Assembly: GCA_021788795.1 (NCBI GenBank)
Contig: JAJYKG010000001.1
Span: 1-30,466 of the forward strand
Origin: Thermoplasmata archaeon
GTDB taxonomy: Archaea > Thermoplasmatota > Thermoplasmata > RBG-16-68-12
DNA length: 30,466 nt
Direction of reading: 5' to 3'
Below, piece after piece: positions 4 through 5,363 of this stretch; positions within the stretch are counted from its first letter, which is position 1; each line of letters opens with the position of its first letter. Made by a program: the position numbers and the translations under genes. Below the pieces are notes generated by a model. That model saw only the letters and a program-made list of their open reading frames with translations, made no database searches and was not told the DNA's origin.

Positions 4-591
4 ATGGTTCCGACCTCTGTGGACCCTCGGACCCAGAGCGGCCTCGATGACCTGCGCGAGCACGATCGCGAGGTCCTCGAATTCCTCTCGCGAGATCCTT
101 CCGCCCAGGTGGCGTTCCAGGGCATCCGCCGGCGGCTCGGGATCCACCCCGAGCAGCTCTCCCGTGCCCTGCACCGGCTCGCGGAGGATGACCTCGTCCA
201 GAAGACCGAGGTCGGGTACCGGGTCACCGCCAAGGCGCTCACGATCCTGAGCCCGAAGGACTGGGCCCCGGAACGCACGGGCGCGACCATCCTCCAGACG
301 TACCTGCCCGCGGACGTGGACGTGCGCGCGTTCGTGACTTCCCTCCGCGGATCCTGGGTGGGACCGCTGCGCTGGTATGGGGTGGTCGAGTCCTCGGAGG
401 AGTTGCGGCTGTCCTGGGCCCTCGAGGACGAATCGGTCCAGCTGGACGTGCGGATCCACGGCGGCCAGCTCATGATCACCGCGAACGTGGAGGACCCGAG
501 GCGCCTCGATGAGGCCACGCGCCTGGGGCACCTGCTCTTCCGCCAGATCTCGGGAGAGGCCTCGCGCGGATACGGCGGCCTCGTGGCATGA
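4..591 (+). CDS. Winged helix-turn-helix domain protein with an uncharacterised C-terminal alpha/beta domain
   Basis: The N-terminal segment DREVLEFL...FQGIRRRLGIHPEQLSRALHRLAEDDLVQKTEVGYRVT fits a wHTH (helix-turn-helix plus wing). The start lies at the window edge, so the true start could be further upstream. Confidence 0.7.
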   Translation: MVPTSVDPRTQSGLDDLREHDREVLEFLSRDPSAQVAFQGIRRRLGIHPEQLSRALHRLAEDDLVQKTEVGYRVTAKALTILSPKDWAPERTGATILQTYLPADVDVRAFVTSLRGSWVGPLRWYGVVESSEELRLSWALEDESVQLDVRIHGGQLMITANVEDPRRLDEATRLGHLLFRQISGEASRGYGGLVA

Positions 592-668
592 CCGGTCTTT
601 TGTGACTGGGCCGACCGTCTTCGAATCAACATACCCCACCGCCGCCATGGTCCCTCCGAGGTCAACAC

Positions 669-1247
669 ATGACCACCACGGTTGGCATACGCAGCAAGGA
701 CGGCGTGGTCCTGGCGGCCGACAAGCGCGCGTCGAAGGGGTTCTTTGTCGGATCCAAGGTGGTCCAGAAGCTCTTCGCCCTCGACGACGCGACGGCCGTC
801 GCCATCGCCGGACAGATGTCCGATGCCGAGTACCTCGTGAACCTCGCGAAGGCGGAACGAAGGCTGCTCACCCTGAGGCGCGGCTACCCGCTCAGCGTCC
901 GCGAGAGCGCGAAGCTCATCTCGAACATCGTGTACAACGGAATGAAGAGCTACAGCCCGTTCTACGTCGAACTGGTCGTCGCGGGCGTGGACAAGGAAGG
1001 CGCCCACGTCTACACGAGCGACATGAGCGGCGCCGTGACTTCGGAGGACTTCATGTCCTCGGGGAGCGGCTCGCCGATCGCGTACGGCGTGCTCGAACAG
1101 GGCTACCGCAAGGACATCGCCCTCGAGGACGCGGGGAAGCTCGCCGAGGCCGCGGTCCGCGCGGCGATGGAGCGGGACCCGGGAAGCGGGAACGGCGTGG
1201 ATGTCCTCGTCGTCCCGAACGGACGATGGCACGGGGAGGCGAACTGA
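669..1247 (+). CDS. psmB: 20S proteasome beta-type subunit (Ntn hydrolase) without a propeptide
   Basis: Begins M-TTTVG. D17 and K33 (numbered from Thr1) and the S-G-S-G motif (SSGSGSPIAYGVLE) are present, as is RDPGSGNGVDV. A GAGGT Shine-Dalgarno lies at 658-662. Confidence 0.92.
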   Translation: MTTTVGIRSKDGVVLAADKRASKGFFVGSKVVQKLFALDDATAVAIAGQMSDAEYLVNLAKAERRLLTLRRGYPLSVRESAKLISNIVYNGMKSYSPFYVELVVAGVDKEGAHVYTSDMSGAVTSEDFMSSGSGSPIAYGVLEQGYRKDIALEDAGKLAEAAVRAAMERDPGSGNGVDVLVVPNGRWHGEAN

Positions 1248-1248
1248 G

Positions 1249-1917
1249 ATGGCGGCAGAGATGGGGCGCATGCCCTTCTTCTACTCGCCCGAGGGCCGGC
1301 TGGTCCAGGTGGACTACGCCCTCCAGGCGGTGTCCCGCGGCTCCACGACGGTCGGGCTGAAGACGAAGGACTTCGCCCTTCTCTCGAGCCAGGTGAAGCC
1401 CACGCGACCCCTGCTCGAGCCCGCGGAGAAGGTCTATGTCCTCGACGACCACGTCGGCGCGACCGGAAGCGGCTACATCGGCGACGTGACGACGCTCATC
1501 GACGAGCTCCGCGTGGAGGCGCAGAAGCACCGCCTCGTGTACGACACGCCCATCGACGTGGGCACGCTGTCGCGGCACCTCTCCGAGTACCTGCACCAGC
1601 TGACGATGTATGCGGTGCGCCCCCTCGGCGCGTCGATCATCTTCGCTGGGGCGGACGAGCTCGGCATCCAGCTCGTCCAGGTGGACCCCAGCGGCACCGC
1701 CTTCCGCGGCTCCGGGTTCGCGATCGGCCAGGGGGCCGACGAGGCCCTCGAGGCGATCCATAAGGGCTACCGGCCCGACCTGAGCCTCGAGGAGGCCCTC
1801 TCGCTGACGACGAAGTCCATCGAGGACCTCAACGGCGGCAAGAGCGTCATCGAGCACGGTGTCGTGCAGGCGGGCACGAGGCGCTTCGAGCACCTCCCGT
1901 CCGCGAAGGCCGAGTGA
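1249..1917 (+). CDS. psmA: 20S proteasome alpha-type subunit, divergent N-terminus, 222 aa
   Basis: YSPEGRLVQVDYALQAV matches the alpha H0 signature. GSTTVGLK, EKVYVLDDHVGATGSG, RPLGASIIFAG and VDPSG...AIGQG are also present. The ATG at 1249 is 1 nt after the beta stop; the 1201 start in the track overlaps the beta gene. Confidence 0.9.
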   Translation: MAAEMGRMPFFYSPEGRLVQVDYALQAVSRGSTTVGLKTKDFALLSSQVKPTRPLLEPAEKVYVLDDHVGATGSGYIGDVTTLIDELRVEAQKHRLVYDTPIDVGTLSRHLSEYLHQLTMYAVRPLGASIIFAGADELGIQLVQVDPSGTAFRGSGFAIGQGADEALEAIHKGYRPDLSLEEALSLTTKSIEDLNGGKSVIEHGVVQAGTRRFEHLPSAKAE

Positions 1918-2046
1918 ACCACTCGGCCCCCTTCCTTTCCGTCATACCTCCACTCAGAGGTACGCGCGAATCCGCGGCGGCGGAGCGGCCCCGCGCGCGT
2001 GAACAAGCGTTAAGTGCCCGGCGGTCCATCGCGAGCCCGCATCGCC

Positions 2047-2964
2047 ATGCGCATCGTGTCCTTCCTGCCTGCGGCCACGGAGATTTGCTACGCCTTGGGT
2101 CTGGGCGGGGAGCTCGTGGGCGTCTCGCCCGAGTGCGACTACCCGTCCGCGGTGAAGGAGGTGCCGGTCGTGAGCCGCGCCCTCGTGGACTCCGACGGCA
2201 AGACGAGCGCGGAGACCAGCCAGGGCGTCGGCGAGGCGCTCGCGGAGGGCGGCGCCCTCTACGAAGTCGACCGCGAGAAGCTCGAAGAGGCGGCGCCGGA
2301 CGTGATCCTGACGCAGGGCCTCTGCGAGGTCTGCGCGCCGTCCGTGGCGGACGTGCGCGCGATCGCGACCCGCCTGACGAAGAAGCCGCGCGTCGTCTCG
2401 CTGGACCCCCACACCCTCAAGGACGTGCTCGAGAACATCGAGGCCGTCGGCAAGGCGTGCGGGTCTCCCGTGGCGGCGCGGAGCGTCGTGGAGGATCTGC
2501 GGGAGCGGATCGAACGGGTGGCGTTCCTGACGGCCCGCGTCCACGAGCGGCCGAAGACCGCGTGCATCGAGTGGCTGGAGCCGCTGTTCATGGCGGGCCA
2601 CTGGGTCCCCGAGCTCGTGGAGTTCGCGGGCGGCATCGACGCGGTAGCGAAGCGGGGGGAGCGGTCGCGGCGGATCGAGCCGAAGGACCTCGTCCTCGCC
2701 GCCCCCGAGGTCGCCGTGCTCATGCCGTGCGGGTTCCACCTGGAGCGGACTCGGGCCGAGGCGCCGGCCCTGACGACGAAGCCGTGGTGGAAGGACCTCC
2801 CCGCGGCCCGCGCGAACCGTGTGTGGCTCGCGGACGGCTCCGCATACTTCAGTCGGCCCGGGCCGCGGATCGTGGACGGCCTCGAGATCCTCGCCCACAT
2901 CCTGCACCCCGAGATCTTCTCCCGCGCGCCCGCCTCCAAGGACGCGGTCCCCTGGATGGGCTGA
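2047..2964 (+). CDS. Cobalamin/Fe-siderophore-type substrate-binding protein (BtuF-like) with no signal peptide
   Basis: Shows MRIVSFLPAATEICYALGLG..LVGVSPECDYP, PDVILTQGLCEVCA and YFSRPGPRIVDGLEILAHILHPE. Start moved to the ATG at 2047. Confidence 0.85.
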   Translation: MRIVSFLPAATEICYALGLGGELVGVSPECDYPSAVKEVPVVSRALVDSDGKTSAETSQGVGEALAEGGALYEVDREKLEEAAPDVILTQGLCEVCAPSVADVRAIATRLTKKPRVVSLDPHTLKDVLENIEAVGKACGSPVAARSVVEDLRERIERVAFLTARVHERPKTACIEWLEPLFMAGHWVPELVEFAGGIDAVAKRGERSRRIEPKDLVLAAPEVAVLMPCGFHLERTRAEAPALTTKPWWKDLPAARANRVWLADGSAYFSRPGPRIVDGLEILAHILHPEIFSRAPASKDAVPWMG

Positions 2965-2965
2965 C

Positions 2966-3508
2966 ATGCCCGAGCTGTACACGCGGACGGGGGATGCCGG
3001 GACCACCGGGCTCCTGGGGCCGGAGCGCATCTCCAAGGACGACCCGCGGGTCGAGGCCATGGGCGCCGTCGACGAGCTCAACGCAGTCCTGGGCGTGACG
3101 CTCGCGGCGCAGAAGGACCGCGCCATCCGGGAGACCCTTTTGAGGGTCCAGGACGACCTGTTCACCGTCGGCGCAGAGCTCGCCATGGCCCGGAAGGCGG
3201 AGACCAAGGTTCCGGTGGTCACTGCGGCATACGTCTCCCGACTCGAGTCCGCCATGGAAGGACTCGACGTCGGACCGGTGAAGGAGTTCCTCCTGCCTCG
3301 CGGGTCCGAGGCCCTCGCCCGGCTGCACTGGGCCCGGACCGTCGCGCGTCGCGCGGAGCGCCGTGTCGTCGCCCTGGCCCACAAGGAACCGCTGAACCCG
3401 GAGCTCCTGCGGTACATGAACCGCCTCTCCTCCCTCCTGTACCAGATGGCCCTGTGGGTGCAGACGAAGGAGAAGCGGAAGCGGGAGCACCCCACCTACC
3501 GCAGCTGA
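2966..3508 (+). CDS. pduO: PduO-type ATP:cob(I)alamin adenosyltransferase
   Basis: Shows LYTRTGDAGTTGL, RVEAMGAVDELNA, QDDLFTVGAELA, ARTVARRAERR and YMNRLSSLL. The ATG is 1 nt after the previous stop. Confidence 0.92.
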   Translation: MPELYTRTGDAGTTGLLGPERISKDDPRVEAMGAVDELNAVLGVTLAAQKDRAIRETLLRVQDDLFTVGAELAMARKAETKVPVVTAAYVSRLESAMEGLDVGPVKEFLLPRGSEALARLHWARTVARRAERRVVALAHKEPLNPELLRYMNRLSSLLYQMALWVQTKEKRKREHPTYRS

Positions 3509-3543
3509 CGCGGCGCCCGACGCCCGATTCTGAACGGCAAAAC

Positions 3544-3562
3544 TATTTTAGGATTAACTAAT
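3544..3562 (+). promoter_or_regulatory. TATA-like box plus a short inverted repeat (candidate MarR operator) upstream of the MFS gene
   Basis: TATTTTA at 3544-3550 and ATTA-AC-TAAT at 3553-3562 form an AT-rich island in GC-rich DNA, about 25 nt before the ATG at 3576. Confidence 0.5.
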
Positions 3563-3575
3563 TGGAAGGGGCCCG

Positions 3576-5363
3576 ATGGTCGAGTACAAGTGGGTGGCCC
3601 TCTCGAACACCACGCTGGGGGTCCTCATGGCCTCCATCGACAGCACGATCGTCCTCATCTCGCTGCCGGCCATCTTCCGCGGAATCAACATCGACCCCCT
3701 CACCTCCTTCCAGTACCTGATCTGGCTCCTCTTCGGGTACTTCATCGTGACGGCCACCCTGCTCGTGACCTTCGGCCGCATCTCGGACATGTACGGCCGC
3801 GTGCGGCTGTACAACCTGGGGTTCGCGATCTTCACCGCGGGCTCCATCCTCCTGTCCATCACCCCGAACACGGGCGACCTGGGCGCCATCGAGCTCATCG
3901 GCTTCCGCCTCATCCAGGCGGTCGGCGCGGGCTTCCTCTGGAGCAACAGCGAGGCGATCATCACGGACGCCTTCCCGCCGAACGAGCGGGGGAAGGCCCT
4001 CGGCATCAACCAGATCGCGTTCCTCCTGGGCTCGTTCATCGGCCTCGTCCTCGGCGGCGTCCTCGCGGTCATCGACTGGCGCCTCGTCTTCCTGGTCAGC
4101 GTCCCCGTCGGGATCGCCGGCACGATCTGGTCCTACGCGAAGCTCCGCGAGCTCGGGACCATCCGGCCGGACCGCAAGCTCGACGTGTGGGGCAACGTGA
4201 CCTTCGCCCTCGGGCTCACGACCCTGCTCATCGCCGTCACCTATGGCCTCCTGCCCTACGGCGCGGACCCCATGGGCTGGAGCGACCCGTGGGTCATCGG
4301 AGGCCTGGTCGCCGGGGCCGCGCTCATGGTCGGTTTCATCTTCATCGAGCTCCACGTCCCGGACCCGATGTTCCGGCTGGAGTTCTTCCGGAACCGGTCC
4401 TTCGCGACCGCGATCTCCGCGACCTTCCTGGGCTCGGTCGCCCGCGGGGGGGTCCTCCTCATGCTCACGATCCTCCTCCAGGGGATCTGGCTCCCCCTCC
4501 ACGGATACAGCTACGACTCCACGCCCTTCTGGGCGGGCATCTTCATGCTGCCCGTGTCGCTCGGCCTCATCACGGCGGGACCCATCAGCGGCTGGGTCTC
4601 CGACCGCCACGGGGCGAGGACCTTGGCCACGACGGGCATGGCCCTCGCCTCGGCCACGTTCCTCGCGCTCACGACGCTGCCGTACAACTTCGACTACCTG
4701 ACCTTCGGCGTCCTCATCTTCCTCAACGGGCTCGGCATGGGCATGTTCGCCGCGCCGAACATGGCCTCCATCATGAACGCCGTGCCGCCGGAGCACCGCG
4801 GCGCGACCGCGGGCATGACGAGGACGCTGCAGAACACCGGTCAGCTCGCGAGCTTCAGCATGTTCTTCACCGTGGTCACCGTGGCGTTCTCGGGGAGCCT
4901 TCCCGCCGCGCTCTCGTCCGCGGTCACCTCCGCGGGTGCGCCCCAGCTCGCGCCGGTCCTGAGCCAGATCCCCCCGACGGGCGCGATGTTCGCGGCCTTC
5001 CTGGGCTACAACCCCATGGGCACGATCCTGTCGCAGCTGCCGCCCAGCCTGCTGAACTCCATCCCGTCCTCGACGATCGCGACGCTCACGGGCCTCACGT
5101 GGTTCCCGAACGCCATCGCCCCGGCCTTCATGTCCTCCCTCGCCGAGGCGTTCTACGTGAGCGCGGGCCTGACCGCCGTCGCCGCGGTCGCCTCGGCGCT
5201 CCGGGGCAAGCGGTTCGTGTACGAGGAGGACGTCCTGGGAGCACACCGGATCGCCGCAGCCGCGAACGGCGGGGGCGGCGGCGGGCCTCCGGCCGGCGAC
5301 GACCCCCCAGCTCGGGAGAGCGGTCCTGCGGATCCGGATCCCCCGTCGCCCCCGGGGGGATGA
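3576..5363 (+). CDS. MFS drug-efflux transporter, DHA2/EmrB-like
   Basis: Shows [15 protein letters not shown], motif A ([13 protein letters not shown]), [18 protein letters not shown] and many TM helices, with a Gly/Pro-rich C-terminal tail. Confidence 0.9.

Follow-up and report, generated by a model that had tools for sequence, protein, structure and literature searches.

What kind of proteasome carries an alpha subunit whose gate residues have been exchanged? The question is raised by a 30,466-nucleotide stretch of DNA from a Thermoplasmata archaeon (GenBank assembly GCA_021788795.1, contig JAJYKG010000001.1, positions 1 to 30,466, forward strand; hereafter the window), in which a gene that we call alpha2 encodes an alpha-type 20S subunit opening with MAAEMGRMPFFYSPEGRL (also given as MAAEMGRMPFFYSPEGRLVQVDYALQAV). 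Proteasome gating is a much-studied allosteric mechanism, and its known elements, namely the Tyr-Asp-Arg (YDR) motif, Pro17, Tyr26 and the Ile/Thr switch, count as near-universal from archaea to humans. An earlier note on this DNA had described the protein as the organism's proteasome alpha subunit with YDR replaced by Met-Gly-Arg (MGR) and had proposed that its gating differs. That proposal of different gating is supported, as about 125 relatives share a different conserved motif where the canonical gate apparatus would be. The framing was wrong, because a canonical alpha, a canonical beta and PAN are encoded in the same genome. alpha2 is a paralogue, a second alpha subunit encoded with its own beta subunit (beta2) and its own regulator, and is not the cell's ordinary alpha. 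From the sequence comparisons below, positions 4-1917 of the window probably specify a self-contained, separately regulated second 20S-type core that exists beside the ordinary proteasome and is gated in a non-canonical manner.

The ordinary proteasome was readily located. In the assembly (2.2 Mb, 78% complete), five genes match the Pfam Proteasome family PF00227: a canonical alpha, a canonical beta, alpha2, beta2 and a weakly scoring alpha-like gene. The canonical alpha (241 amino acids (aa)) has an intact YDR motif and adjoins SBDS and Rrp4-like genes, while the canonical beta has a propeptide (...VETG/TTTLG) and adjoins an aCPSF-like gene. PAN is also present (592 bits) and ends in ...GAMYA, an HbYX motif. 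Among the canonical alphas of the class, AYDR or GYDR is kept in 31 of the 31 families sampled, with a near-invariant N terminus; the loss of Tyr-Asp that the earlier note had envisaged as a possible common trait of the lineage's ordinary alphas was therefore seen in none of them. The simplest account, in which alpha2 is the organism's ordinary alpha with Tyr-Asp merely substituted, fits the alpha-type sequence and its source annotation ('proteasome subunit alpha'). It is refuted by the co-resident canonical YDR alpha, which occupies the usual exosome/SBDS site, and by the YDR-keeping families of the class, from most of which alpha2 is missing; we assign it next to no probability.

Two other proteins were recorded in connection with the ordinary proteasome. 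On the contig that carries PAN (C192; L006, L007), the neighboring gene encodes a Cdc48-like double AAA protein of 733 aa that ends in ...RQDLEVS, without a penultimate Tyr. A third alpha-like protein (contig C46, L005:1453-2196, minus strand; 247 aa, 62 bits to PF00227) has its gate tail replaced by an N-terminal segment of ~45 residues with a ribbon-helix-helix-like look, followed by ...CFAPDGRVYQLEYA. Its occurrence is patchy (12 of the order's 79 genomes) and it evolves fast (45-82% identity), with in-frame stops in two copies.

That alpha2 is an alpha subunit is clear from its match to PF00227 (E 1.2e-40) and from its predicted structure. The single-chain AlphaFold model, built on an 86-sequence alignment, has a predicted local distance difference test (pLDDT) score of 91.9, and Foldseek aligned it to solved alpha chains with template modeling scores (TM-scores) of 0.85-0.90 and a root-mean-square deviation of ~1.5 Å. 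The protein has the N-terminal nucleophile (Ntn) fold of the proteasome family and an N-terminal H0 helix, which the model places at residues 19-29, and lacks the Thr1 nucleophile, as an archaeal alpha does. Among proteins of solved structure, ordinary alpha subunits match it best (~136 bits, 35-38% identity). The curated NCBIfam models of archaeal alphas score it below their cut-offs, with 165.3 bits for the equivalog TIGR03633 (cut-off 287.35) and 178.6 bits for the subfamily NF003075 (cut-off 219). The alpha N-terminal signature PF10584 reaches 28.1 bits (cut-off 27.7) through its second half alone, signature positions 8-23 being aligned, and no PF10584 match is recorded for most members of the alpha2 family. 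Identity to the co-resident canonical alpha is only 36-37%. The C terminus is truncated, as had been suspected from the sequence: 63 residues follow the conserved AIG glycine, compared to 76 in the genome's own canonical alpha, and the model ends on a strand at 213-216 with the canonical C-terminal helix missing. The start codon at 1249 is assigned because a GGAGG lies 9 nucleotides (nt) upstream, because the first residues M-A-[A/T]-[E/D]-M are conserved across the family and because a start further upstream is impossible for the open reading frame (ORF) in several relatives.

The gate tail was then examined residue by residue, with the genome's own canonical alpha in Thermoplasma acidophilum register as the numbering ruler. 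The landmarks of this ruler (I12, T13, P17, G19, L21, V24, Y26, K66, G80, L81, V82 and V129/R130, with YGGVRP from 126) agree with the T. acidophilum residues reported in PMC10349882. In the in-register alignment, T. acidophilum Tyr8 and Asp9 correspond to Met5 and Gly6 of alpha2, Arg10 is retained as Arg7, and the N-terminal tail is 3 residues shorter than that of T. acidophilum alpha, all as the earlier note had described; Pro17 and Tyr26 are likewise retained in this protein, as Pro14 and Tyr23. The Ile12/Thr13 switch is also gone, being replaced by Pro9 and Phe10. Of the canonical gate set (Tyr8, Asp9, Ile12/Thr13, Pro17 and Tyr26), positions 8, 9, 12 and 13 thus read Met, Gly, Pro and Phe.

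These replacements are a property of a family. Tails were tallied in register with Gly19 for 125 members of the alpha2 family and 92 other alphas. Tyr8 and Asp9, found in 77 and 80 of the other alphas, respectively, are absent from the alpha2 family, whereas Arg10 is present in 118 of its members (49/92 in the others). The positions that follow carry Pro12 (123/125), Phe13 (117/125), Phe14 (123/125) and Tyr15 (123/125), so that the consensus over ~125 alpha2 proteins is (M)-A-[A/T]-[E/D]-M-G-R-M-P-F-F-Y-[N/S]-[Q/T/P]-E-G. Retention of Pro17 and Tyr26, as in the alpha2 protein of the window, is confined to its sub-lineage. Pro17 occurs in only 25 of the 125, compared to 88 of the 92 other alphas; Tyr26 is present in 90/92 of the latter in the full alignment. 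Members of Nitrososphaerota type have the tail ...G-R-x-P-Y-F-Y-G-P-E-G, in which Pro17 is kept while position 26 is often Phe or Ser. As Pro17 is usually lost and position 26 varies in the Nitrososphaerota members, each of the four residues of the canonical cluster is dispensable somewhere in the family. Conservation of an R-x-P-aromatic-F-Y tail among proteins that are otherwise ~58% identical argues that the tail is under selection and is not decaying.

Parallel to the rebuilt tail, the activator pocket has been preserved. Gly19, Leu21, Val24, Lys66 and Gly80 are invariant in 122/122 family members, and the Lys66 equivalent that the earlier note had picked out is Lys61. A fully conserved HbYX docking pocket argues against a simple loss of activator binding, and a partner with a C-terminal tail presumably still docks on the alpha2 ring. 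The surroundings of the pocket differ in three respects. First, Tyr occupies position 81 in 122/122 members, compared to 16/92 other alphas. Second, the back-loop before Lys66 comprises 28 residues instead of the canonical 30. Third, the annulus loop reads Y-[A/T]-V-R-P instead of Y-G-G-V-R-P and is one residue shorter in 125/125 members.

Changes of the same kinds have been engineered into the T. acidophilum 20S. There, the YDR residues are ordered only in the open state, and substitution of Ile12 or Thr13 raises basal activity 2-6 fold and blunts or abolishes activation (PMC10349882). The L81Y substitution, introduced as a mimic of the HbYX tyrosine, leaves the gate partly open; deletion of I59, which makes the back-loop one residue shorter, gives a slight rise in basal activity, and neither PAN nor PA26 then stimulates the particle (PMC10349882). 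Because alpha2 naturally combines versions of these changes, its ring would probably be unable to use the canonical opening mechanism. The mutants are single laboratory changes in a YDR subunit, whereas alpha2 is a co-evolved protein with a new conserved tail, and its behavior is therefore not readable from any one of them.

The partner encoded immediately upstream is catalytic. beta2 matches PF00227 with E 1.1e-49 and, when aligned to 1pma_B, 1j2q_H and 3h4p_a, has a complete catalytic set (Thr1, Asp17, Lys33, Ser129, Asp166 and Ser169). No start codon lies between an in-frame stop and the ATG at 669, which leaves no room for a propeptide, and in all relatives examined the start codon immediately precedes TT[T/I]VGI. 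beta2 is short at the C terminus in alignments with solved beta subunits and scores 209.7 bits against the equivalog TIGR03634, below the cut-off of 224. Such features raise the idea that the two proteins form a proteasome-like assembly of other architecture or role, for example a protease built of two rings or of half a particle, or a peptidase that has no gate and never acts together with an unfoldase. Scores below the equivalog cut-offs for both proteins, the missing C-terminal helix of alpha2, the shortened beta2 and the many known proteasome homologs with other architectures (PMC8665760) are all compatible with it. Both proteins nonetheless lie firmly within archaeal alpha/beta sequence space, scoring 179 and 210 bits with the archaeal models and 136-141 bits with solved Archaeoglobus fulgidus subunits; an invariant Lys66 pocket is hard to explain without a docking partner, and the tail is strongly conserved rather than lost. 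We regard such an assembly as improbable.

The wHTH-beta2-alpha2 cassette, in which wHTH denotes a winged helix-turn-helix gene, recurs as a unit. It is syntenic in Thermoplasmata genomes (77-92% identity for alpha2 and 87-97% for beta2) and in at least 19 distant soil and peat contigs obtained by a metagenome scan (57-61% for alpha2, 63-68% for beta2 and 33-38% for the wHTH protein). In the database, one distant beta2 has its nearest relatives under the source names Nitrososphaerales, Nitrososphaerota or Thaumarchaeota (Nitrososphaera sp. AFS among them), which place the module in two archaeal phyla. Within the order of the window (79 species-representative genomes), one family (f1) has alpha2 in 37 of its 44 genomes and another (f5) in 2 of its 4; the seven f1 genomes without it are 53-85% complete. 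It was found in 0/31 genomes of the five other families of the order, and samples of 200 class genomes and 400 phylum genomes added no further family. One genome of the class sample, flagged as unpublished, enters solely as one of those lacking alpha2. A second alpha2 copy in one metagenome-assembled genome (L016:3900-4663) was considered as a solo gene and rejected, as its 5' end is cut at a junction with unrelated DNA, where it abuts lower-GC (guanine-cytosine) response regulator and metallophosphoesterase-like genes; an assembly chimera is the probable explanation. Two alpha2 matches each were also obtained in two further genomes of that genus.

Trees of ~150 and 63 alpha sequences unite the alpha2 proteins of Thermoplasmata and Nitrososphaerota in a single clade (99-100% support) which, together with its sister cluster, falls outside the canonical alphas of the class. 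Support along the backbone is weak, and the tree accordingly does not separate an old duplication from horizontal acquisition. In the beta2 tree, for which the outgroup branch was too long for rooting, the two phyla are split by a branch with 98% support, and diversity is far greater on the Nitrososphaerota side. The alpha/beta pair seems to be old and distinct and probably reached one Thermoplasmata order from Nitrososphaerota, a direction that we infer. The sister of the alpha2 family, with 98-99% support, is a small cluster (P0132) of 230-aa proteins (39% identity) from contigs of up to 627 kb; it was not found in the 400-genome sample of the phylum. P0132 retains G-Y-D-R and Pro17, shares the short back-loop with alpha2 and has an aromatic Phe at position 81, and it may represent an intermediate form.

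The third gene of the cassette provides a candidate regulator. The wHTH protein consists of an N-terminal wHTH and a C-terminal domain, gives weak matches to Pfam MarR_2 and HVO_A0261_N, and yields an AlphaFold model (pLDDT 78.8) whose N-domain resembles the DNA-binding domains of MarR, MexR and IclR; a Foldseek search with this model returned no convincing match for the C-terminal domain. Its gene lies immediately 5' of beta2 in most relatives of both clades, and the protein is a probable transcription regulator of the module. A role as an HbYX-type activator or chaperone was also considered and set aside, as no HbYX-like motif was found at its C terminus.

Between the wHTH gene and beta2 lies a palindromic element, separated from the beta2 start codon by 38 nt. 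The window has a single match to the pattern TGTGACY-N14-18-RTCAHYW, compared to 0.01 expected by chance, and the palindrome is found immediately 5' of beta2 in cassette loci of both clades although their base composition differs greatly. Of the fetched loci, 80 lack a pattern match; almost all of these are cassette-less, and 3 are cassette loci without an exact match. The whole genome contains just one further match, inside a TFB coding region, which we took as a chance occurrence and rejected as an operator. Overlap of the palindrome with the likely promoter would suit a repressor. The main features are collected below.

Features of the wHTH-beta2-alpha2 cassette in the window (positions are those of the window; aa, amino acids)
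Feature	Position	Strand	Description
wHTH gene	4..591	+	195 aa; N-terminal winged helix-turn-helix and conserved alpha/beta C-terminal domain
Palindromic operator-like element	601..631	+	TGTGACT-N17-AATCAACA, half-sites GTGAC / GTCAC-like
beta2	669..1247	+	192-aa catalytic proteasome beta subunit, propeptide-less, M-TTTVGI
alpha2	1249..1917	+	222-aa alpha-type subunit; ATG 1249, one base after beta2 stop TGA 1245-1247
Rebuilt gate tail of alpha2	1249..1296	+	Residues 1-16, MAAEMGRMPFFYSPEG, in place of the canonical N-terminal stretch
Lys61 codon AAG	1429..1431	+	Equivalent of Lys66, binder of the activator's C-terminal carboxylate; 122/122 family members
Tyr76 codon TAC	1474..1476	+	T. acidophilum Leu81 position, activator pocket

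Several other observations concern the palindrome and the borders of the module. On one Nitrososphaerota-type contig, a second palindrome of the beta2 type (L038:3242-3272) lies just 5' of a gene for an HtrA/DegP-like serine protease with a PDZ domain (ORF 3391-4335); this copy hints that the wHTH regulator could control a small protein-quality-control regulon. In the Nitrososphaerota-type contigs L023-L043, the wHTH genes follow at ~40-60 nt a symmetric TATA region, CCCAAAGTATATATTTGGG, which is distinct from the beta2 palindrome. Downstream of alpha2, positions 2014-3508 of the window contain a Peripla_BP_2 (periplasmic-binding-protein-like) gene and a gene for a PduO-type cobalamin adenosyltransferase. 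The two keep their place in the Thermoplasmata relatives and do not occur at the Nitrososphaerota loci, which places them outside the module.

Gene organization also bears on whether the second pair forms its own particle. Alternatively, alpha2 and beta2 could be subunits that mix with the canonical alpha and beta and tune the gating and specificity of one pool. Archaea with more than one alpha or beta gene are known to assemble alternative core particles, including Haloferax volcanii with its alpha1 and alpha2, and archaea with two or three such genes form both homo- and hetero-oligomeric particles (PMC13022661). Four alpha/beta genes in one genome, and the general archaeal folds that alpha2 and beta2 retain, would be in keeping with such mixing. 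Against it, the alpha2 gene invariably sits next to beta2, with a gap of one to a few bases; the pair has apparently moved between phyla together with its regulator; and alpha2 is far diverged, at the identity given above, from the resident canonical alpha. A heptameric gate composed of two incompatible tail types would close poorly, and loss of the propeptide in beta2 alone suggests an own assembly route. On balance we consider mixing unlikely and favor a separate core. The H. volcanii paralogs are single extra genes, whereas alpha2 is one half of a beta-alpha operon with its own regulator and operator. Both H. volcanii alphas retain YDR.

The proposed core can be placed among known systems. 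With the canonical archaeal 20S (PsmA/PsmB of T. acidophilum, 1PMA/8F6A, and A. fulgidus, 1J2Q/6HE5), alpha2 and beta2 share the alpha and beta folds, the beta catalytic set, H0 and the Lys66 pocket. They differ from it in that alpha2 is without Tyr8/Asp9 and the Ile12/Thr13 switch, does not conserve Pro17 across its family, and has Tyr81, shorter loops and no C-terminal helix, and in that beta2 has no propeptide; in addition, canonical psmA and psmB are unlinked, whereas beta2 and alpha2 form one operon behind a dedicated regulator. HslV resembles beta2 in that its catalytic Thr is exposed by removal of the initiator Met alone, as we propose for beta2, but is a two-ring dodecamer without alpha subunits, whereas beta2 is of archaeal PsmB type and has a partner alpha.

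A parallel to the order of the genes and to the tail is bacterial. Actinobacterial PrcB-PrcA (Mycobacterium tuberculosis, 3H6F/3MI0) is likewise encoded beta-then-alpha in one operon and is likewise YDR-less, and its aromatic gate peptide is in the same register, with F-P-Y-F-I-S-P-E in PrcA and M-P-F-F-Y-S-P-E in alpha2. The PrcA N terminus in the PDB chains is MSFPYFISPEQ, and the PDB also holds a PrcA variant lacking residues 2-9, which we take to be the 'open-gate' mutant. The actinobacterial PrcB propeptide is long, whereas beta2 has none. The NCBIfam models of the bacterial 20S are far from being reached, with 16.2 bits for alpha2 against TIGR03691 (cut-off 139) and 66.2 bits for beta2 against TIGR03690 (cut-off 191.9). 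Two alpha/beta pairs in one genome are known from Rhodococcus erythropolis, which has two prcBA operons (PMC13022661), and the survey of Fuchs et al. 2021 (PMC8665760) covers remote families only among the proteasome homologs. Multiple archaeal alpha or beta genes and the Rhodococcus pairs are thus already known; a full-text literature search found no description of a wHTH-beta2-alpha2 module or of an alpha family with an R-x-P-F-F-Y tail.

Taken together, the cassette would work as follows. The wHTH protein would bind the palindrome over the likely promoter and thereby switch the beta2-alpha2 operon. As the genes are one base apart, beta2 and alpha2 would be made in equal amounts, and they would assemble with each other into an alpha2(7)-beta2(7)-beta2(7)-alpha2(7) particle. 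beta2 would need no autocatalytic maturation, since removal of the initiator Met would expose Thr1. In the alpha2 gate, the Tyr8/Asp9/Pro17/Tyr26 cluster and the Ile12/Thr13 switch would be supplanted by the Arg-x-Pro-Phe-Phe-Tyr tail, which is probably an aromatic plug like the actinobacterial PrcA gate peptide MSFPYFISPE. With the pocket kept, a built-in Tyr81 and a back-loop two residues shorter, docking of an HbYX-type tail is probably still possible, while the particle would open or leak by a mechanism other than YDR and the Ile/Thr switch. The likely outcome would be a higher basal or an activator-insensitive activity, under particular conditions, perhaps stress.

Several points weigh against parts of this account of a second, differently gated core. 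Tyr81 (16/92) and the short back-loop (19/92) also occur in some YDR-bearing alphas, and neither is diagnostic alone. Residues 1-10 of alpha2 have a mean pLDDT of 53, and the monomer AlphaFold model is uninformative on a heptameric gate. The PrcA likeness is a resemblance confined to a short motif in an otherwise archaeal-type protein, and extrapolation from single T. acidophilum mutants to a co-evolved paralog is weak. On the regulatory side, it is only from the position of the palindrome that the wHTH protein is proposed to bind it, and the beta2 palindrome, sought upstream of the wHTH gene in Thermoplasmata relatives, was not found there, where a TATA-like box is the sole element.

A bolder form of the same account, which we put forward tentatively as a minority possibility, is that of a mobile, self-sufficient 'stress proteasome'. 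Its P-F-F-Y plug and pocket Tyr would make gating independent of YDR and the Ile/Thr switch, and perhaps of any ATPase, and the wHTH repressor would release the module, with other quality-control proteases, under proteotoxic stress. If true, this would represent a second, independently evolved gating solution within the archaeal 20S lineage.

A subunit family in which the pocket is kept and the whole gate is replaced, beside an unaltered proteasome and PAN, provides a natural experiment on the gate elements that activators require for opening. As a two-gene particle without propeptide processing, the putative core should be easy to express and image. A complete protease module, consisting of regulator, operator and two subunits, is apparently common to two archaeal phyla; these include named Nitrososphaera strains, in which its regulation could be studied directly.

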